Positions 29,584-62,931 of a stretch of DNA of 64,000 nucleotides are shown in pieces. The notes beneath the pieces are model-generated. The model saw only the letters and a program-made list of their open reading frames with translations, was not told the origin of the DNA and did not search any database. A program made the translations under genes and the position numbers. Origin of the DNA: Candidatus Wildermuthbacteria bacterium RIFOXYD1_FULL_50_12 (lineage in GTDB: Bacteria > Patescibacteriota > Minisyncoccia > Minisyncoccales > UBA10102); NCBI GenBank assembly GCA_001825035.1, contig MHUO01000004.1, forward strand, positions 155,476 to 219,475, read 5' to 3'. How positions within the stretch are numbered: position 1 is the stretch's first letter; each line of letters starts with the position of its first letter.

Positions 29584-31458
29584 ATGAATCTTGGAAAATT
29601 CCAGAGGAAATTGCTTGAGCGCACGCGGAGAAGGCGTCTTGCGTTTTTTTTGACTATAGATATTGGTTCAATAATTGTGGCGGTAGTGCTGGCATTTCTC
29701 TTACGTTTTGAGGGCACAATCCCTTCACAGTATTTTCAAGGAGGATTGCAGGCGGCAATTGTTTTGGTGCTTATCTCTGTTGTCCCAGTGTTGCTTCTAT
29801 CTCGGCTGTATTCTTTTACATGGGCTTACGTGAGCTTGGAGGATTTGCTGCTTTTGGGGCGAGCTTTGGCTTTAAGCGCCCTCATTACGGGAGCTCTCTT
29901 TGTGCTTCTGCGTAGCCAGGAATTTTTCCTCGGATTTCCGCGATCCGTACTGCTCATCACTTACGTGCTTTTGTTTTTGTTTATGGCTGGATTGCGTTTA
30001 TCCAAACGCGCGTATCTCCAATGGAGCGCCGCCAGAAAGCAGGGGATAGGCAAGGAGCGAACGCTTATTGTGGGTGCGCGCGACGAAGGTGAGGAGATTC
30101 TGCGCAGTATGCTGCAGTCGCAAAAAAGTGCGTACGTTCCCCTTGGGTTTGTGGACACGCATCTCTCGCGGGTGGGAGCTACCATACACGGCGTGCGAAT
30201 ATTGGGAACTGTGGACGACCTTGTCAGAATCATTCCCGAGTACGGCGTGCAAACGCTCGTTATCGCGCTCCCCGAGCATGCCTCAGCTGATATACGCAAA
30301 GCGGTGGAATTGGGCAGGAAGGCAGGCCTGCAGAACATTCAGATTGTGCCCCCGCTTTCAGAATTGATAGGAGGTCAAATTTCCATACGAGAACTTCGTG
30401 GGGTGCAGGTGGAAGACCTTATGGGCAGAGAACAAGTTTCTTTGGATGCGCAGACGATTAAGCAATTTGTTGCAGATAAAAAAATACTGGTAACCGGAGC
30501 CGCGGGCTCCATTGGAGCCGAGCTCTGCCGCCAGATAGCAAGATTCTCGCCCGCCTCTTTGATTCTAGTAGATCAAGATGAAACCGGCATGTTTTGGATT
30601 GCGCGGGAACTGCGCGCCAGGTTTCCCCAGGCGCCTTTGGAGTCCTTTGTCGCAGATATTACAGACGAACAAAAAATGCGCTCCATACTTTCTCGGTATA
30701 AGCCAGAGATTATTTTTCATGCGGCAGCGTATAAGCACGTGCCCTTGATGGAAGAACAGGTAGACGAAGCCGTAAAGAACAACGTGTTTGGCGCGTTTGC
30801 GATAGCTTCTCTCGCCGTGGAACAAGGAACAGAAAAGTTTGTGTTCATTTCAACAGATAAAGCAGTGAATCCAAAGTCGGTAATGGGAGCTACGAAGCGC
30901 TTGGGCGAGATGATTTGCCAGATGCTGAACGGGAAAGACCATACCAAGTTCGTGTCGGTGAGATTCGGAAACGTGTTAGATAGTAGGGGAAGCGTTATCC
31001 CGATTTTCCGCGAGCAGATTAGGCGCGGAGGTCCTGTAACCGTAACGCATCCCGACATGCGGAGGTATTTTATGAGTACGCCTGAAGCATGCTTGTTGGT
31101 GCTCCAAGCCGCTGCCATAGGAGAGGGGGGGGAAGTGTTTGTGCTGGATATGGGTAAACCCGTGAAGATTCTTGACCTGGCAAAAGAAATGATACGACTC
31201 TCAGGATACGAGCCCGATAAAGACATTCCCATTGTGTTCACCGGCCCAAGGCCGGGAGAGAAATTTTTTGAAGATGTGCTTTCAGCAGAAGAGGGTACCG
31301 AAGCCACGAAACACGAGAAAATTTTTGTTGCAAAACTCTCGTCCGTAGAGGAACAGAAACTCCGTGAAGGATTGGAGCTGTTGCGAGAAAAAGTGTCTGT
31401 TGACGACAGGGAGGCGATTCTGCTTGCTCTCAAATCCATCGTGCCGAATTACGATTGA
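29584..31458 (+). CDS. pglF: Membrane-anchored UDP-GlcNAc 4,6-dehydratase (PglF/CapD/WbpM family)
   Basis: Four N-terminal TM helices, then KKILVTGAAGSIGAELCRQI, IIFHAAAYKHVPLME and FVFISTDKAVNPKSVMGATKRLGE. Confidence 0.85.
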   Translation: MNLGKFQRKLLERTRRRRLAFFLTIDIGSIIVAVVLAFLLRFEGTIPSQYFQGGLQAAIVLVLISVVPVLLLSRLYSFTWAYVSLEDLLLLGRALALSALITGALFVLLRSQEFFLGFPRSVLLITYVLLFLFMAGLRLSKRAYLQWSAARKQGIGKERTLIVGARDEGEEILRSMLQSQKSAYVPLGFVDTHLSRVGATIHGVRILGTVDDLVRIIPEYGVQTLVIALPEHASADIRKAVELGRKAGLQNIQIVPPLSELIGGQISIRELRGVQVEDLMGREQVSLDAQTIKQFVADKKILVTGAAGSIGAELCRQIARFSPASLILVDQDETGMFWIARELRARFPQAPLESFVADITDEQKMRSILSRYKPEIIFHAAAYKHVPLMEEQVDEAVKNNVFGAFAIASLAVEQGTEKFVFISTDKAVNPKSVMGATKRLGEMICQMLNGKDHTKFVSVRFGNVLDSRGSVIPIFREQIRRGGPVTVTHPDMRRYFMSTPEACLLVLQAAAIGEGGEVFVLDMGKPVKILDLAKEMIRLSGYEPDKDIPIVFTGPRPGEKFFEDVLSAEEGTEATKHEKIFVAKLSSVEEQKLREGLELLREKVSVDDREAILLALKSIVPNYD

Positions 31459-31483
31459 CATAAACCTTGTTTTGTGATAGAAT
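31455..31483 (+). promoter_or_regulatory. Consensus sigma70 promoter TTGACA-17-TGnTAGAAT driving the FN3 secreted protein
   Basis: TTGACA at 31455-31460, 17-nt spacer, extended -10 TGATAGAAT ending at 31483. ATG 31491 follows 8 nt later. Confidence 0.6.
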
Positions 31484-31490
31484 ATTTATC

Positions 31491-32741
31491 ATGAAACGCG
31501 TTGTTTTTGGATTTACATTTCTTTTGATTTTAACGCTTGCCATTGGAGCTGCGCCTGTTTTTGCGCAGGGTCAAGAGGCGAGTGAACAGGAGCGTATTCA
31601 AGAGCTCCAAGCCGTTGTGCTTCAACTGTTTAAACTTGTGGCAGAGTTGCAGCAGCAGATTTTCAATATACAAGCAGCGCGTATATCTGGCGTCCCCGCA
31701 GTAGCTACATCTATTTTGAGTTGCGGGCAGGCAGAAGTAACATGGGAAAAGGTTTCGGGGGCGACCGGATATGTGCTATATCGCAATGATAGCGAAGTGT
31801 ACGACGGAAAAGATCTCAAGTTTTTGGATACAGGACTGATGCCAGGCGCTATGTATGCCTATACCGTACGCGCGAGAAACGCGGGCGGCCTCAGTGCGGC
31901 CTCTCCGGTACAAACAATTACCGTTCCTTCAGAGTGCCCGCCTTCCCCGCCCATTGTGTGGGCGCAGGCAGGAGTGTGCGGCGGAACCGTGCAGGTTTCG
32001 TGGAGCAGGCCAGTGGGAGCTGTGTTCTACGAGGTGTATCGGGGGAGCAAGCTGGTATTTAGCGGAAGCACGTTTTCTTTCCTCGATGGGGGATTGAGCG
32101 TTGGCAAAACCTACACCTACAAAGTGCGCGCCGGGAACGCGGGCGGATGGGGAGCGTTTTCAAAAGAGGTAAGCGCCACCTCTTCTGTCGTGTGCCCGCC
32201 TTTGGCTCCCGAAGCCCCAGAAGTGGGAAGCCCGCTTTTGCAGGATACTGCAAGCGAAGGAATTCTGAAGCTTACCATTCAAGGCAGTCCGTCGGGTGCC
32301 ACAGCAAAGTCAGGAGAAGCTGGCGTAAACGTGTTGAGTTTCCGGGTAAGCTCCGTGCTTTCTTCCATGGTGGTGGAGCGCGTGGATGTTGAGTTTACGG
32401 ACCGACCGTGGCTCTTTCTCTCTGACGTGGAACTTCGCGACGGCTCCAAGACCATTGCGCGCATGCAAGTCTCCGAGAATTCGTTTGCGCGTACGGATAC
32501 AGACAGGTATCGTTTGAGCTTTACCGGATTATCGGTGCAGGTTTCAAAAGGAGGAAGCAAAACATTAACGGTGCGCGTTGTGGCAAAAGAAGATTTGCTT
32601 TTGGCAGAGCCACGGGCGCTTACCGTTGCAATACCCGAAAACAGTGTGCGAACAAGAGATCAAATTGGCGTGGTTCACACCGGCCCCGTTGCAGAGCAGG
32701 CAAACTCCTTTGCAAAGACCTTTTTCGTGAAGAAAAAGTAG
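31491..32741 (+). CDS. Secreted protein with signal peptide, coiled-coil segment, two fibronectin type III-like repeats and a C-terminal beta-rich domain
   Basis: MKRVVFGFTFLLILTLAIGAAPVFAQG is a signal peptide. Repeats TWEKVSGATGYVLYRND...YAYTVRARNAGGLSAAS and VSWSRPVGAVFYEVYRG...YTYKVRAGNAGGWGAFS. The track ORF starts at 31467. Confidence 0.55.
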   Translation: MKRVVFGFTFLLILTLAIGAAPVFAQGQEASEQERIQELQAVVLQLFKLVAELQQQIFNIQAARISGVPAVATSILSCGQAEVTWEKVSGATGYVLYRNDSEVYDGKDLKFLDTGLMPGAMYAYTVRARNAGGLSAASPVQTITVPSECPPSPPIVWAQAGVCGGTVQVSWSRPVGAVFYEVYRGSKLVFSGSTFSFLDGGLSVGKTYTYKVRAGNAGGWGAFSKEVSATSSVVCPPLAPEAPEVGSPLLQDTASEGILKLTIQGSPSGATAKSGEAGVNVLSFRVSSVLSSMVVERVDVEFTDRPWLFLSDVELRDGSKTIARMQVSENSFARTDTDRYRLSFTGLSVQVSKGGSKTLTVRVVAKEDLLLAEPRALTVAIPENSVRTRDQIGVVHTGPVAEQANSFAKTFFVKKK

Positions 32742-32759
32742 GGCTGAGAGTCGTGGGGG

Positions 32760-32787
32760 TTGACAATTTCTTTGGTAGGAGTATAAT
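32760..32787 (+). promoter_or_regulatory. Perfect-consensus sigma70 promoter TTGACA-(16/17)-TATAAT upstream of the murB leader
   Basis: TTGACA at 32760-32765, TATAAT at 32782-32787. Confidence 0.6.
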
Positions 32788-32833
32788 GTTGAAATGAGTT
32801 CAGCGCAGTTTTACTGCCTGATCCCGTGAAACG

Positions 32834-32870
32834 GCAAAAGACCTCCCCTAGGCGAGGCCTTTTGCTTTTT
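32834..32870 (+). terminator. Intrinsic terminator inside the murB leader (~45-70 nt after the predicted TSS)
   Basis: GCAAAAGACCUC / GAGGCCUUUUGC hairpin (11 of 12 bp), followed by UUUUU at 32866-32870. Confidence 0.6.
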
Positions 32871-32975
32871 ATAAAGATATTGCTATGATGAAACTGAAAC
32901 CGGGGGCTGAACTCATTAAGTTTCACAACAGGGGTTACCGCCCCGGTTTCATTTTGAGTATAATAGAGCAATGAC

Positions 32976-33926
32976 ATGGGAGAATTTGAGACATTAAAAC
33001 AGCAGTTTCCGCGAGTGCGGCGAGGTGTGCCGCTCAAAAAGCATACGACGTTTCGCATTGGGGGGGCTGCCAAATATTTTTTTGCTGCGCGTACGAGCGA
33101 CGAGCTCGAAAGCGCGGTACGGACCGCAAAGGAGTTGGAACTGCCTTTTTTCCTGTTGTCTGGAGGCAGCAATGTTTTAGTTTCTGACAATGGTTTTCCT
33201 GGCCTCGTGATACAAATTAAAAATTCAAAATTCAAAATTGAAAATTCTGCTGTGCGGGCTGAGGCAGGAGTGCAGATGGCGACGCTCGTGAAAGAAACAG
33301 GAAAGCGGGGATTGCAGGGATTGGAATGGGCGGGCGGATTGCCTGGCACTTTGGGAGGAGCTGTGCGGGGGAACGCGGGTGCTTTTGGAGGCGAGATAAA
33401 GGACTCTGTTTTGCGAGTGGAAGCGATTGATCAGAAAGGGAAACGCAGAATGTTTTCAAAAAAGCAGTGCAAATTTTCGTATCGTTCCTCCATTTTTAAA
33501 GAAAGGGGATATATTGTATTGTCAGCGACCTTGCAGTTAAAGAAGGGCGACAAGAAAAACATTCAGACAATTGCGAAAAAGCATATCCAGTACCGAAAGG
33601 AGAAGCATCCCTTAGAATATCCGAGCGCGGGAAGCATTTTTAAGAATTGCGATCTCGCGAAAACTCCAAAAAAAATGCAGGAGCACTTCAAAGACGTAAT
33701 TAAGATGGATCCTTTCCCCGTAATTCCCACTGCAGTAATAATCGCGCGCGCGAATTTGCCCGGATTGCGCTGCGGCGGTGCGCAAGTTTCAGAAAAACAT
33801 CCAAATTACATTGTGAATCGCGGAGACGCGCGCGCAAAAGACGTGTTGGAACTCATTGCGAAGGTAAAGCGCGAGATAAAAAACAAATTTGGAGTTGATT
33901 TGGAAGAAGAAATCACGATTTTATAG
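32976..33926 (+). CDS. murB: UDP-N-acetylenolpyruvoylglucosamine reductase (MurB)
   Basis: FRIGGAAKYFF (FAD-binding) and SAGSIFKN. Length and domain order fit MurB. Confidence 0.8.
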   Translation: MGEFETLKQQFPRVRRGVPLKKHTTFRIGGAAKYFFAARTSDELESAVRTAKELELPFFLLSGGSNVLVSDNGFPGLVIQIKNSKFKIENSAVRAEAGVQMATLVKETGKRGLQGLEWAGGLPGTLGGAVRGNAGAFGGEIKDSVLRVEAIDQKGKRRMFSKKQCKFSYRSSIFKERGYIVLSATLQLKKGDKKNIQTIAKKHIQYRKEKHPLEYPSAGSIFKNCDLAKTPKKMQEHFKDVIKMDPFPVIPTAVIIARANLPGLRCGGAQVSEKHPNYIVNRGDARAKDVLELIAKVKREIKNKFGVDLEEEITIL

Positions 33927-33981
33927 TTTTCCCCATTGACACGGGTTTTTGCAAATGAAAAAATAAAGGAAGAGAAGGTCG

Positions 33982-34110
33982 ATGCGATACAAACGTTGCA
34001 TATTGCAAAAACCAATGCCAGCAAGAAAAAGAAAGAGAGCTTCTGCGAAAGGAAAGAGTCGTAAGAGAACGACGAAGAAGAAGACGACCCGACGCAGAAG
34101 GAGAAGATAA
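33982..34110 (+). CDS. 42-aa polybasic mini-ORF (MRYKRCILQKPMPARKRKRASAKGKSRKRTTKKKTTRRRRRR) with SD and its own terminator
   Basis: AAGGAAGAGAAGG precedes ATG 33982. A strong terminator follows at 34125-34160. Not in the ORF track because it is under 60 aa. Confidence 0.3.
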   Translation: MRYKRCILQKPMPARKRKRASAKGKSRKRTTKKKTTRRRRRR

Positions 34111-34124
34111 TTCTCTTTCCGAAT

Positions 34125-34160
34125 CCCGCCCCGACGTTATGTCGGGGCGGATTTGTTTTT
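34125..34160 (+). terminator. Intrinsic terminator (10-bp GC stem CCGCCCCGAC/GUCGGGGCGG plus U-tract)
   Basis: Perfect stem at 34126-34135 / 34141-34150, loop GUUAU, then AUUUGUUUUU. Confidence 0.65.
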
Positions 34161-34191
34161 GCGCGAAAACGTGGTATACTCAAACCTTACA

Positions 34192-36729
34192 ATGGCGCTC
34201 TTGGGCAACATCTTTAAAAAATCGCAGGATTCCTTTCTGAAGGAAGCACAGGAAATTGTTTTGCGTATAAACGTGCTGGAGTCGGAATTTGAGAAACTCA
34301 GTTCAGAAGCGCTCAAAGCAAAAACGCAAGAACTCAAAGAAAAACTTGAAGCAGGGGCTTCTCTTGCTGACTTGCTTCCCGTTGCATTTGCACTCATTCG
34401 CGAATCCTCAAAACGCACGCTCGGCCAGCGGCATTTTGACGTGCAGCTGGTGGGAGGCATAGTGCTCCACGCAGGCAAGATCGCGGAAATGAAAACGGGC
34501 GAAGGGAAAACGCTCGTTGCCACCTTGCCTGCGTACCTCAACGCGCTGGAAGAGAAAGGAGTACACGTGGTTACGGTAAACGATTATTTGGCAAAGCGTG
34601 ACGCCGTGTGGATGGGACAGATTTATTATACGCTCGGAATGAGCGTGGGGTGCATTGTGCACGACGCTTCCTATATATACGATCCCGCATTCGCGCAAGA
34701 AAACGCAGAGAGAGATGAGGCGCGCGACACTCTCGGTAGTTTTCGAGTTGAAGACACATATCTGCGGCCCGTGTCGCGCAAGGAAGCATACGCGGCAGAC
34801 ATTACCTATGGCACGAACAATGAGTTCGGATTTGATTTTCTGCGCGACAACATGGTGTACGATTTGAGTCAGCAGACGCAGCCCCGCCTGCGCGGGCAGG
34901 GAGGACATCACTTTGCCATTATCGACGAGGTAGATTCCATTTTGATTGACGAGGCAAGAACTCCCTTGATTATTTCAGCTCCCGACGAAGAGAGTTCTTC
35001 TTGGTACAGGGATTTTGCGAAAATAACGCCCCAGCTCAAAAAGGATACGGACTACGAAGTAGATGAAAAGCTGAAAGCCGTAACTATTACGGACGCTGGC
35101 ATCAATAAAGTGGAAGGGCTTTTGGGTGTGCAGAATATTTATGAAGAACGGGGAATGAAATATGTTCGCCATTTGGAGAACGCCCTGCGCGCGCAAGCAT
35201 TGTTTCAGAGAGATCGAGATTATGTGGTGCGCCAAGGCCAGGTGGTAATTATTGATGAATTCACGGGCCGCTTGCTTCCCGGGCGCCGGTATTCAGCTGG
35301 ATTGCATCAGGCACTGGAAGCGAAAGAAGGAGTTCAGGTACAGCCAGAGTCGCTCACGTTGGCCTCTGTGACGTTTCAGAATTATTTTAGAATGTACAAA
35401 AAACTTGCGGGGATGACCGGAACTGCTTTTACGTCAGAAGAAGAGTTTTATAGTGTGTATGGTTTGGAAGTGAAGGTGGTTCCCACGAATAAACCCATGA
35501 TCAGGCAGGATTTGTCAGATCGCATTTACCGGACAGAACAGGGAAAATTTCGCGCCGTGGTCCGGGAAATTAAAGCGCGGCACGAAAAGGGCCAGCCCCT
35601 GCTTGTGGGCACCGTGTCTATACAGAAAAACGAGTATCTCGGCAAATTGCTCCAAACAGAAGGAATTCCCCATAACATTCTCAACGCAAAACACCATGAA
35701 CAGGAAGCGCAGATTATTGCGCAAGCCGGGCGTTTGGGAGCTGTAACCGTGGCAACCAATATGGCTGGTCGCGGTGTGGATATTGTCTTGGGCGGGAATC
35801 CGCCAAGCGAGGAGGAGGCGACAAAAGTGAAAGAAATGGGTGGCCTGCATGTAATTGGCACCGAACGCCACGAAGCTCGGAGAATAGACAACCAGCTGAG
35901 GGGGCGGGCAGGCAGACAAGGGGATCCTGGCTCCACGCAATTCTTTGTTTCCATGGAAGACGATTTGATGCGTATTTTCGGGGGAGAGCGCATCAAAGGG
36001 TTGATGGAAAAACTCCGTATGCCAGAAGACGAGTCTATTGAGAATAGAATACTTTCGAACGCGCTTGAGTCGGCGCAGTCCAAAATTGAGGGTTTTCATT
36101 TTGACGCGAGAAAGCACGTATTGCAGTATGATGATGTGTTAAACAAGCACCGAGACGCTTTGTATCGCCAACGCCGCGAAATTTTAGAGAAAGCAGAAAA
36201 GGGAGAGCTGAGAGAATATATAATACATATGGCAGGGGAGCACGGTGTCTCTAAAGACGATTACGAGAAGAAAGAGCGGGAGTTGGGCGAGGAAAATATG
36301 CGGCAAGCGGAAAAAATTGTCGCCTTGCGCGCCATTGACTCTTTGTGGGTGGGGCATTTGGAAGAAATGGAACATTTGCGAGATTCTGTGCGTTTACGCG
36401 CCTATGGTCAGCGCGATCCCTTGGTGGAATATAAGACCGAAGGACATCGTATGTTCCAGCAGTTGTTGAGCGCCGTGGAGGAAACCATTGCAAAAACTCT
36501 TATGCAGGTGCAGCTTGCGCCCCAAGCAACCCCTCCCATTCAGCAAAATGTGAGTTATTCCAGCCCGGCGAATATGTCTGCTTCAGCTGTGGGTGCGGCC
36601 GCCTCCGTCCGCCCCGGGCGGACTTCGGCGGCTCAAAAGGTGGGGCGTAACAACCCCTGCCCCTGCGGAGCGACCCATCCCGATGGTCGTCCAATGAAGT
36701 ACAAGCATTGCCATGGGAAGAATCCTTGA
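34192..36729 (+). CDS. secA: Preprotein translocase ATPase SecA with C-terminal SEC-C zinc motif
   Basis: DEAD-like motor motifs (MKTGEGKT, DEVDSILIDEARTPLIIS) and C-terminal CPCGATHPDGRPMKYKHCHG. Start at internal ATG 34192 (MALLGNIFKK...). Confidence 0.9.
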   Translation: MALLGNIFKKSQDSFLKEAQEIVLRINVLESEFEKLSSEALKAKTQELKEKLEAGASLADLLPVAFALIRESSKRTLGQRHFDVQLVGGIVLHAGKIAEMKTGEGKTLVATLPAYLNALEEKGVHVVTVNDYLAKRDAVWMGQIYYTLGMSVGCIVHDASYIYDPAFAQENAERDEARDTLGSFRVEDTYLRPVSRKEAYAADITYGTNNEFGFDFLRDNMVYDLSQQTQPRLRGQGGHHFAIIDEVDSILIDEARTPLIISAPDEESSSWYRDFAKITPQLKKDTDYEVDEKLKAVTITDAGINKVEGLLGVQNIYEERGMKYVRHLENALRAQALFQRDRDYVVRQGQVVIIDEFTGRLLPGRRYSAGLHQALEAKEGVQVQPESLTLASVTFQNYFRMYKKLAGMTGTAFTSEEEFYSVYGLEVKVVPTNKPMIRQDLSDRIYRTEQGKFRAVVREIKARHEKGQPLLVGTVSIQKNEYLGKLLQTEGIPHNILNAKHHEQEAQIIAQAGRLGAVTVATNMAGRGVDIVLGGNPPSEEEATKVKEMGGLHVIGTERHEARRIDNQLRGRAGRQGDPGSTQFFVSMEDDLMRIFGGERIKGLMEKLRMPEDESIENRILSNALESAQSKIEGFHFDARKHVLQYDDVLNKHRDALYRQRREILEKAEKGELREYIIHMAGEHGVSKDDYEKKERELGEENMRQAEKIVALRAIDSLWVGHLEEMEHLRDSVRLRAYGQRDPLVEYKTEGHRMFQQLLSAVEETIAKTLMQVQLAPQATPPIQQNVSYSSPANMSASAVGAAASVRPGRTSAAQKVGRNNPCPCGATHPDGRPMKYKHCHGKNP

Positions 36730-54002: not shown

Positions 54003-54338
54003 TTTCGTGTCGGAGGAAACCTATAAGCCGAATTCTGTCCTCCCGCTTTCGCGGAATGGGCAATCATCTATCTGTCTCGTACATTACTGCACGGATCAAG
54101 CGAGTTGTTTTTCACAGAAGCTCCGCATGAAAGCAGCTCTTCTGATCCACTCTTGCACTCTACACGGATTTAGCCGTTTCACCCCCGAAGTTGCCTTCGG
54201 GGCTCGTCTCTGTTCGCACCGCTCGCCTTACGGCGGCCGGGTGTTACCCGGAGTAGTTGATCCGCCAACTGGCGGAGAGTGTTCGGACTTTCCTCCCCGC
54301 CAACTGGCGGGGCAATTGCCCAGCTTCCTCCGACGCCG
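54003..54338 (-). ncRNA. rnpB: RNase P RNA (rnpB), bacterial type A-like
   Basis: The minus strand reads ...GGCGUCGGAGGAAGCUGGGCAAUUGCCCCGCCAGUUGGCGGGGAGGAAAGUCCGAAC... (P1, P2, P3 hairpin, CR-I GGAAAGUCCG) and ...GACAGAAUUCGGCUUAUAGGUUUCCUCCGAC (CR-V ACAGAAnnCGGCUUA, then the P1 3' strand). Ends are approximate. Confidence 0.75.
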
Positions 54339-62751: not shown

Positions 62752-62825
62752 GCGGGATTCGTATAGTGGTAGTACGTAACCTTCCCAAGGTTGAAGCGCC
62801 GGTTCAATTCCGGTATCCCGCTCCA
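62752..62825 (+). tRNA. tRNA-Gly (anticodon CCC), CCA encoded
   Basis: Acceptor GCGGGAU/AUCCCGC, anticodon stem-loop UAACC-UUCCCAA-GGUUG, T-arm CGCCGGUUCAAUUCCGGU, 3' CCA. Confidence 0.8.
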
Positions 62826-62834
62826 GAGGGCGAC

Positions 62835-62906
62835 GCCGATGTAGCTCAGTGGCAGAGCAACTCTTTCGTAAAGAGTAGGCCGTCGGTTCAAATCCGACCA
62901 TCGGCT
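62835..62906 (+). tRNA. tRNA-Thr (anticodon CGU), CCA not encoded
   Basis: Acceptor GCCGAUG/CAUCGGC, D-arm GCUCAGUGGCAGAGC, anticodon loop UUCGUAA, T-arm GUCGGUUCAAAUCCGAC. Confidence 0.8.
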
Positions 62907-62931
62907 CCGTATCATTAGGTGTTCGGATATT

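Follow-up and report, generated by a model that had tools for sequence, protein, structure and literature searches.

The 64,000-nucleotide stretch of Candidatus Wildermuthbacteria bacterium RIFOXYD1_FULL_50_12 analyzed here (contig MHUO01000004.1; hereafter the window, whose numbering gives the coordinates of the locus) contains, at 32760-32975 of its plus strand and immediately before murB, an element that we interpret as a conserved two-gene small-RNA (sRNA) module. A short RNA, RNA1, would bind the hairpin loop of a second one, RNA2, encoded directly behind it, and may thereby tune read-through into murB; we consider this the best explanation of the locus, with about an even chance of being right as a whole. 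Three boxes of RNA1 (A, C and B) face three of RNA2 (A′, B′ and C′), RNA1 also comprises a hairpin (hp1) and a terminator (hp2), and the ends of RNA2 close a stem, S3 (Table 1). Compensatory changes among relatives indicate that the pairing almost certainly acts at the RNA level and is under selection, and an RNA–RNA interaction with ~15 base pairs confirmed in this way is well supported by the comparison. The element is a new, clade-restricted RNA family that had not been described before.

The two halves of the element covary in related loci

The nearest homologues of the murB product come from metagenome bins of Parcubacteria, Paceibacterota and Wildermuthbacteria. Related loci (numbered with an L below) were collected by looking up the contigs that encode homologues of MurB or of the upstream-encoded, secreted fn3 protein, by a metagenome scan with an exact 18-nucleotide hairpin-core pattern (eight true loci among 13 matches), and by a pattern scan of GTDB genomes, which added two Wildermuthbacteria bins and one bin labelled Saccharibacteria; a scan of GTDB species genomes with a single MurB protein gave no confirmed locus. 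A covariance model built from nine sequences (R1) recovered the element, at one copy per locus, in all collected loci and in the divergent L024, L025, L031/32 and L029/30, with RNA1 homologues matched at E = 1e-17 to 1e-43. The model gave no match in L001, which has murB without the element, or in L028, which has the fn3 gene without it. The family set comprises at least 15 distinct sequences from Parcubacteria/Wildermuthbacteria metagenomes. Core identity is 85-95% across lineages in which the MurB and fn3 proteins reach just 55-72%.

The initial annotation of this DNA had made its proposal depend on whether A:A′ and B:B′ complementarity is kept in relatives; it is conserved and it covaries. 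In a model-based alignment (12 distinct sequences, 47 pairs, five helices), 97.0% of cells hold standard pairs, compared with 34-47% when the 3′ partners are slid. Twenty of the 47 pairs have changed on both sides, a count reached by 0/500 shuffles, and each of the five helices contributes two to six of them. A second, hand-segmented alignment of 70 columns and 13 sequences, to which the distant L029 and L031 were added, has 98.6% of its cells paired. Overall, A:A′, B:B′, C:C′, S3 and hp1 pair in 97-99% of cells, against 26-49% in slid controls. In the curated alignment, both-side changes affect 6/12 pairs of A:A′, 3/11 of C-B:B′-C′ and 6/11 of S3, and those between the boxes (A:A′, B:B′, C:C′) amount to nine pairs.

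The individual helices have changed in different ways. A:A′ (96.8% of cells paired among 13 distinct sequences; duplex energy −17.1 kcal/mol) shifts, for example, from AAUGAGUUCAGC/GCUGAACUCAUU to AACGAGCGUUGU/GCAGGGCUCGUU. B:B′ pairs in 100% of cells and switches as a unit in five sequences, from GUGAAAC/GUUUCAC to GUAAGAC/GUCUUAC, with two double-changed pairs. C:C′, whose segments were chosen by hand (columns 13-16 with 56-59), also pairs in 100% of cells and goes from UCCC or CCCC opposite GGGG to CUCC or CUUC opposite GGAG in L024, L025, L029 and L031; the energy of the C-B:B′-C′ duplex is −12.0 kcal/mol. S3 has been rewritten almost wholly and is still paired (GAAACCGGGG/CCCCGGUUUC to GGAUCGAAAG/CUUUCGAUCC; 99-100% of cells), with C-to-U and A-to-G wobble changes as well. 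In hp1, 4/5 pairs have changed on both sides (CAGC/GCUG, CAAC/GUUG and GGAAA/UUUCC are examples), and the hp2 stem covaries at four pairs. An apparent complementarity of hp1 to murB codons 5-10 is due to chance, because the hp1 sequence is not conserved. Within box A, CAGC becomes CGGU opposite an unchanged GCUG, and columns 12/35 hold U·G in 10/13 sequences. Many wobble changes of this kind are legal only in plus-strand RNA, which excludes both a DNA operator and the minus strand.

The nucleotides between the helices are less constant. Between A′ and B′, AA is invariant in 15/15 sequences; between B′ and C′, relatives have AACA, AUUA, AACU, ACUAC or UAAAU, and the UUACCG of the RNA2 loop varies to UGACCG or UACGA and is replaced in L029 by UCAAACAA. 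Such poor junction conservation fits a pair selected for mutual binding better than a catalytic or ligand-binding core.

A match to a known RNA family, which the initial annotation had left to an Rfam scan, was not found at the locus. With Rfam 15 at the gathering threshold, the whole window gave RNase P (54008-54331) and two tRNAs only. For 32700-33050 at E ≤ 10, the best match reached 21 bits against a 55-bit threshold and was terminator-driven, and four homologous loci at E ≤ 0.5 gave zero matches. ARAGORN detected no tRNA, transfer-messenger RNA (tmRNA) or permuted tmRNA at the locus, either in the window or in nine related loci. A phage, plasmid or viral origin was rejected: blastn against phage and plasmid collections found no match, and viral contigs gave no pattern match. 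The literature that we searched contained no sRNA of Patescibacteria, the Candidate Phyla Radiation (CPR), and no murB RNA motif; UpsM was the sole relevant analogue.

Promoters and terminators suggest two transcripts

Two promoters, P1 and P2, recur with fixed spacing to the two halves. P1 is present as TTGACA-16/17-TA(T/C)A(A/C)T in 15/15 loci, with box A starting 5-6 nucleotides after the −10 and unconserved bases in between. P2 is present in the same 15 loci as TTGCTT-N15-17-TAnnAT, with the first base of S3 5-6 nucleotides after its −10, and the bases around its hexamers vary. In a simple promoter scan, P1 was the top promoter-like site within 31000-35000. The −35 of P2 overlaps the 3′ arm and U-tract of hp2 in the window.

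The terminator hp2 has a GC-rich stem and a U-tract and is canonical in all loci. In the window its 12-bp stem carries one A/C mismatch and encloses an 8-nucleotide loop; that position is a proper A-U pair in most relatives, and a simple terminator scanner failed to flag hp2 because of the internal mismatch. Its loop is not kept in L024, L025 and L031, and hp2 is therefore a generic terminator; the palindromic loop CCUAGG was rejected as a kissing-dimer site on the same grounds. In the window, hp2 would also end read-through from the fn3 gene, there being no terminator between the fn3 stop (32741) and P1. We place the ends of RNA1 by the spacing of P1 (5′) and by hp2 with its U-tract (3′).

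A 3′ signal likewise always follows RNA2, either S3 and then CAUUUUG, or a dedicated terminator. CAUUUUG is found after S3 in the window, L005, L006 and L009, which have no separate terminator there. Dedicated terminators occur in L004, L010/L022, L014, L016, L019/L020, L024 and L031, and one of them, T2 (AAAAGCCGAUC...GGUCGGUUUUUC), is common to L004, L010, L016, L024 and L031 and spans both sub-clades. The sequence of T2 is constant while S3 changes completely, without covariation; an antiterminator formed between S3 and the dedicated terminator is thus unsupported.

Insertions separate the two halves at a consistent place. Inserts of ~20 nucleotides (L005, L009, L014, L024, L025, L031), ~150 nucleotides (L020) and ~190 nucleotides (L029) all lie in the hp2-P2 interval, the stretch from P2 to S3 being free of them, and the insert-bearing loci have a separate TTGCTT, correctly spaced and re-created next to RNA2. 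The L029 insert has two extra copies of the terminator 3′ half (fold z = −6.3); read-through from P1 into RNA2 is unlikely there, though the boxes still covary. These signals make two transcripts, RNA1 from P1 and RNA2 from P2, the probable arrangement.

Two of the inserts have structure of their own. That of L029 (9660-9885, equal to 4850-5075 of L030) is made up of two structured repeats of ~100 nucleotides with a copy of CCCTCGAGCGAGGCATTTTGTTTTTGG at the end of each, and a 106-residue "gene" has been called across them in L030. The ~150-nucleotide insert of L020 (7700-7830) lies between direct repeats of GCCTTTTGCTTTT.

Parts of the locus in the window

The features on which the initial annotation was built are all present: the promoter agrees with the consensus throughout and has a 16-nucleotide spacer where 16 or 17 had been allowed, the strong terminator is a hairpin plus TTTTT with terminator features in every locus, the boxes have their exact reverse complements, and the 11-bp stem precedes the murB start codon, whose open reading frame (ORF) has both MurB Pfam domains. 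Its suggestion of a ~75-nucleotide sRNA with a downstream complementary site comes close to the comparative picture, in which the downstream part is a predicted second transcript, RNA2.

Table 1 Features of the locus, with positions in the 64-kb window
Feature	Position	Strand	Sequence or parts	Remarks
Promoter P1	32760-32787	+	TTGACA 32760-65, 16-nt spacer, TATAAT 32782-87	12/12 consensus
RNA1, predicted sRNA of ~78 nt	~32793-32870	+	Box A, hp1, box C, box B, terminator hp2	
Box A	32793-32804	+	AATGAGTTCAGC (RNA AAUGAGUUCAGC)	Partner A′, 12/12 complementary
Hairpin hp1	32805-32817	+	GCAGU-UUU-ACUGC	
Box C	32822-32825	+	UCCC	Proposed partner C′ GGGG
Box B	32826-32832	+	GTGAAAC (RNA GUGAAAC)	Partner B′, 7/7 complementary
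hp2, intrinsic terminator	32834-32870	+	Stem 32834-45/32854-65, TTTTT 32866-70	
Promoter P2	32862-32889	+	TTGCTT 32862-67, 16-nt spacer, TATGAT 32884-89	8/12 consensus
RNA2, predicted ~60-nt hairpin RNA or murB leader	32895-32955 (transcript ~32896-32955)	+	S3 enclosing A′-AA-B′-AACA-C′-UUACCG, then UUUU	
S3 5′ arm	32895-32905	+	UGAAACCGGGG	Pairs with 32941-51, 11 bp
Box A′	32906-32917	+	GCUGAACUCAUU	Exact reverse complement of box A
Box B′	32920-32926	+	GTTTCAC (RNA GUUUCAC)	Exact reverse complement of box B
Box C′	32931-32934	+	GGGG	Proposed partner of box C
S3 3′ arm and U-tract	32941-32955	+	CCCCGGUUUCA 32941-51, UUUU 32952-55	Terminator- or attenuator-like RNA2 end
Second TATAAT	32959-32964	+	TATAAT, poor −35 (TTACCG)	11 nt before murB ATG; possible weak murB promoter
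murB, UDP-N-acetylenolpyruvoylglucosamine reductase	32976-33926	+		Pfam FAD_binding_4 and MurB_C

The repeated boxes exceed chance: perfect inverted repeats of at least 12 nucleotides arose in 0/1000 dinucleotide shuffles of 32760-32975 (216 nucleotides), the largest seen being 11. The 21-nucleotide string A′-AA-B′ occurs once in the window, box A has no further exact copy there, and its two-mismatch copies are at chance level. Folding of the locus is stronger than that of shuffled sequences (z = −4.3 and −3.8).

A direct repeat, GAGTATAAT(N4-5)AATGA, joins 32779-32797 and 32956-32974 at 79% identity, such that the second TATAAT and the AATGA before the murB ATG echo the P1 −10 and the start of RNA1. 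The repeat may be what is left of a duplication, or may act as a weak murB promoter; it is not seen in L005 or L006.

Genes next to the element

The protein homologues of murB carry the MurB annotation in Parcubacteria. murB lies downstream of the element in 8/15 lineages (the window, L004, L005, L019, L024, L025, L029 and L031). The element runs straight into it in the window, L005, L025 and L029; murB follows a terminator in L024 and L031, a terminator and a tRNA-Met gene in L004, and a 2-kb ORF in L019. It is not downstream in L006, L009/L026, L010/L022 or L014, and for L016, L020 and L023 the gene downstream was not identified in the sequence examined. The genes found in its place are those for Fic and RadC (L010/L022), RadC with restriction-like genes (L009/L026), a membrane protein (L006) and another ORF (L014). 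In the genome that supplied L022, murB-secA lies elsewhere, behind toxin-antitoxin-like genes, with neither the element nor an A′-like site in front. A second RNA1 target was sought around the murB of L001, which is displaced, and in the rest of the window, and neither had one. The label "murB leader", given to the element at first, therefore does not carry over to the family, since other genes follow it in several relatives, some of them after its own terminator. The family is defined by pairing, not by murB.

The order RNA1-RNA2-murB-secA occurs with and without the upstream fn3 gene, and since L029 has the element before murB without fn3, this order is probably ancestral; later insertions, to judge from the gene order, appear to have landed just after RNA2.

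Inserted or defence-type genes gather at a hotspot directly behind RNA2 and ahead of murB. Its cargo includes an opposite-strand tRNA-Met gene, Fic, RadC, a PLD-nuclease/restriction-like gene, RE_AlwI, a type I restriction–modification S subunit and a DUF7718/DUF5647 pair (L004 2454-2531, L022 4740-6223, L026 2444-4543, L019, and L001 2066-3928). No att-like duplication of the RNA2 3′ end was present in the sequence examined of the island-bearing loci. In three loci, the gene after RNA2 is immediately preceded by a third block that resembles a promoter, TTGATT-N17-CATGAT; this gene is radC in L009 (block at ~4480-4440, minus strand) and murB in L024 (4511-4545) and L031 (5083-5117).

In L005 (4001-5056), the public MurB call (P0010) has 351 residues instead of 316 and extends through the whole RNA2 hairpin. 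This extension is an annotation artefact, because an open frame runs across RNA2, and the fusion of RNA2 onto MurB by gene callers is corrected here.

Proposed mechanism

P1, a perfect sigma-70 promoter, would drive RNA1, which would end at hp2, and P2, in the terminator tail, would drive RNA2, whose ends are predicted to form the 11-bp S3 around a 35-nucleotide loop. RNA1 would bind this loop in trans through A:A′ (12 bp), B:B′ (7 bp) and C:C′ (3-4 bp) and could fill nearly the whole of it. The order of the boxes is non-collinear (A...C-B versus A′-B′-C′), so the complex would be pseudoknot-like. It would contain a four-way junction of S3, A:A′, hp1 and C-B:B′-C′ and a second junction of A:A′, B:B′ and hp2, the latter with a nick where RNA1 begins. 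The two would be bridged by helices that lie side by side and differ little in length, one of 12 bp and the other of 7 + 4 bp with a small internal loop.

In the window, RNA2 probably doubles as the murB 5′ leader. We infer this from the RNA2-murB interval, which has no scanner-level promoter; TATAAT at 32959-64, with its poor −35, is the sole candidate; it was not flagged in the promoter scan, and L005 and L006 lack it. With 14 nucleotides from the U-tract to the murB ATG, L005 has no space for a promoter there. S3 with UUUU is the sole terminator-like signal between P2 and the murB ATG in the window. With RNA1 in the loop, the GGGG of C′ would no longer compete for the CCCC in the 3′ arm of S3, and S3 would be pre-organized; as RNA1 engages C′ and rigidifies the loop, formation of the complete S3 and termination at UUUU would be favoured. 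RNA1 would thereby determine what share of the P2 transcripts ends at S3 and what share goes on into murB. Such control of murB read-through in the window is a tentative proposal, with the balance somewhat against it, and it is also possible in L005, L025 and L029.

A more far-reaching reading, which we regard as unlikely, is that RNA1 and RNA2 are separately transcribed halves of a split RNA, functional only as an assembled pseudoknot-type four-way-junction complex. This two-piece riboregulator, in effect a sensor or clamp put together in trans, would have been wired ancestrally to murB in CPR bacteria and later have been retained as a free-standing particle. We know of no bacterial regulatory RNA made of two separately promoted tandem genes of this kind.

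Alternative explanations

Several points weigh against the two-gene module that we favour. Both ends of each transcript are read from sequence signals, and in loci with short linkers, P1 read-through could yield one RNA with the same pairs formed intramolecularly. P2 matches just 8/12 consensus positions (TTGCTT 3/6), falls below the threshold of a simple scanner, and has its TTGCTT partly constrained as the hp2 3′ arm. C′ could instead form a hairpin with the CCCC of the inner 3′ arm of S3, which fits as well as C:C′ does. Several of the 15 sequences, all of one clade, share inherited changes, so the independent events are fewer than the cells counted. TATAAT at 32959-64 could serve as murB's own promoter in the window, and the direction of the RNA1 effect on S3 is a conjecture. 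The module is also highly conserved where murB is not downstream and where it stands before the strong, non-covarying T2; murB read-through control is thus not its general function. These last facts agree with a stand-alone structural RNA in two pieces, a compact, pseudoknotted and possibly protein-bound particle unrelated to murB, whose adjacency to murB and fn3 would be inherited gene order. P1, perfect in every lineage, is typical of abundant housekeeping RNAs, nearly all non-hairpin nucleotides of RNA1 and RNA2 are used in mutual pairing, the module has kept high identity after separation from murB and with a dedicated RNA2 terminator, and the hotspot for Fic, RadC, restriction-like and tRNA genes resembles those beside conserved RNA genes. 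The poorly conserved junction nucleotides, however, would be unusual in a catalytic, ligand- or protein-binding core; the family is narrow, being absent after fn3 in L028 and returning eight true loci from the exact-match metagenome scan; and murB lacks another visible promoter in at least L005 and L029. We consider such a particle fairly unlikely. A single cis-acting leader, in which a P1 transcript passes hp2 and a long-range pseudoknot senses a signal and governs murB read-through, corresponds to the riboswitch or attenuator that the initial annotation offered as its other option. Its long-range, pseudoknot-like pairing is borne out by covariation, the position of murB in eight lineages and an RNA1-RNA2-murB order older than the fn3 adjacency accord with it, P2 is sub-consensus, and the two-part organization and variable linker are reminiscent of pseudoknotted riboswitches with two domains, such as ZTP. 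The single transcript is disfavoured: P2 is conserved in hexamers and spacing where the remaining linker is not, insertions of 20-190 nucleotides split the halves, and transcription has yet to make the partner boxes when it meets the strong terminator hp2. The arms of hp2 share no nucleotides with box A, B or C, and pairing of these boxes therefore cannot antiterminate it. Three terminator-like hairpins lie between the halves in L029, where the pairs still covary, the element persists before unrelated genes and behind its own terminator, and no Rfam riboswitch matched even at E ≤ 10. We judge a cis-acting leader improbable.

Two further readings have far less to recommend them. A type I toxin-antitoxin-like pair or small-protein gene would require a peptide product, MMKLKPGAELIKFHNRGYRPGFILSIIEQ from RNA2 or the leaderless MSSAQFYCLIP from RNA1, and the role of antisense repressor for the other RNA; the ORFs exist in the window, leaderless mRNAs are in use here (the fn3 ATG lies 7 nucleotides after a −10), and the L005 gene caller fused the RNA2 ORF to murB. 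Across relatives, however, the RNA2 frame is broken by one-nucleotide indels (L004, L016, L019, L024) and its ATG is missing in L010, L016 and L019, the RNA1 peptides have just MSS in common and differ in length and frame, and in L024 ACG replaces AUG with a compensating change in A′. The substitutions obey base-pair logic, not codon logic, and the peptide is not hydrophobic. The small ORFs of both RNAs were rejected for these indels and lost start codons, and we find a coding function very improbable. The exact inverted repeats that flank P2 in the window would also suit a DNA-level element, with A/A′ and B/B′ as inverted regulator sites that surround the two promoters and form an operator pair or serve DNA looping, yet the copies are non-identical as DNA in most relatives and pair as RNA through G·U (CGGT versus GCTG). 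hp1 and S3 covary likewise, with legal pairs on the plus strand alone, and we give this reading a next-to-negligible probability. Two resemblances were tried and rejected: a hammerhead-like CUGAU...GAAAC in RNA1, which is not conserved in relatives, and a tRNA cloverleaf or T-loop in RNA2 (GGGG-UUACCG-CCCC), whose loop varies and is not T-loop-like.

Other features of the window

The fn3-protein gene looks leaderless: an extended −10, TGaTAGAAT (31475-83), ends 7 nucleotides before the ATG at 31491, which is the start of the 416-residue database form and places a signal peptide first; the mechanical ORF start (31467) falls inside the promoter. The murB-secA spacer (33936-34150) has a conserved promoter, TTGACA-17-AAAAAT (33936-64), a strong terminator (34126-50) and, at 34015-34110, a tiny, extremely basic ORF, MPARKRKRASAKGKSRKRTTKKKTTRRRRRR, with no NCBIfam match; its start region, AACCAATGCCAGCAAGAAAAAGAAAG, is conserved in L001, L004 and L005. 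RNase P class A (54008-54331, minus strand, 131 bits) and the genes for tRNA-Gly(CCC) and tRNA-Thr(CGT) (62752-62908, plus strand) are the only Rfam or ARAGORN matches in the window.

Discussion

CPR bacteria have tiny genomes and few recognizable regulators. The hosts of the element are ultra-small groundwater bacteria (Parcubacteria/Wildermuthbacteria), and its place at the ancestral entry to murB-secA may show how peptidoglycan precursors are tuned without protein regulators in episymbionts that depend on a cell wall. Unusual features of the layout are the tandem pair of promoters, the use of a terminator as the following −35 as well, and three non-collinear boxes predicted to close a loop into a four-way junction. 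The R1 covariance model can be used to chart the family.

Like trans-acting base-pairing sRNAs, RNA1 has its own promoter, a 3′ Rho-independent terminator and conserved complementarity of a single-stranded seed. The marks of a murB attenuator or riboswitch, namely a constant downstream gene and a sensor and terminator in one transcript with mutually exclusive pairing, are absent, and the RNA1/RNA2 locus has the defining features of none of tmRNA, type I toxin-antitoxin systems, DNA operators and mobile elements.

The closest analogue in situation is UpsM, an sRNA derived from the 5′ untranslated region upstream of the dcw cell-wall and division cluster of Rhodobacteraceae (PMC5089854). UpsM is released by a Rho-independent terminator, is clade-restricted, and has been proposed by its authors to act in trans and possibly to originate from a riboswitch (PMC5089854). 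As there, a terminator-released sRNA would lie in a long leader region before cell-wall genes; unlike UpsM and the dcw mRNA, which share one promoter (PMC5089854), the present locus has a second conserved promoter that would restart transcription. RNA1 differs further in being complementary to the next RNA, and it has no similarity to UpsM in sequence or structure, the locus being without an Rfam match.

Two-piece (permuted) tmRNA, known from alpha-proteobacteria and some cyanobacteria, is cut from one precursor and carries a tRNA-like domain and a tag reading frame. RNA1 and RNA2 resemble it in lying in tandem on one strand and in their predicted base-paired complex; unlike it, they total ~140 nucleotides, have no T-loop, CCA end or conserved ORF, and are negative in ARAGORN. 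The ZTP/pfl riboswitch is bipartite and pseudoknotted, with two sub-domains joined by a variable linker upstream of a metabolic gene. RNA1 and RNA2 share its two halves, variable-length linker and long-range pairing. Here, in contrast, a terminator and a conserved promoter lie within the linker, neither the downstream genes nor the junction nucleotides are constant, and Rfam gave no match.

CopA/CopT and RNA I/RNA II of plasmids are dedicated antisense-type sRNAs that bind the hairpin loop of their partner, and in RNA I/RNA II of the pAD1 par locus the complementary segments are dispersed. By analogy, these dedicated antisense-type sRNAs appear to be the closest kind to the element described here. 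In contrast to all three, the RNA1 and RNA2 genes lie in tandem on the same strand, and their complementarity is therefore no by-product of overlap; the boxes number three and are non-collinear, with a pseudoknot-like four-way junction as the predicted outcome; and the locus has no toxin ORF or replication primer and resides in a CPR chromosome. Like CopA/CopT and RNA I/RNA II, RNA1 is predicted to be short, strongly promoted and terminator-ended, with single-stranded boxes that would pair with the loop of its partner, and, as in pAD1 par, the complementarity is split into separate segments and the pair co-evolves.

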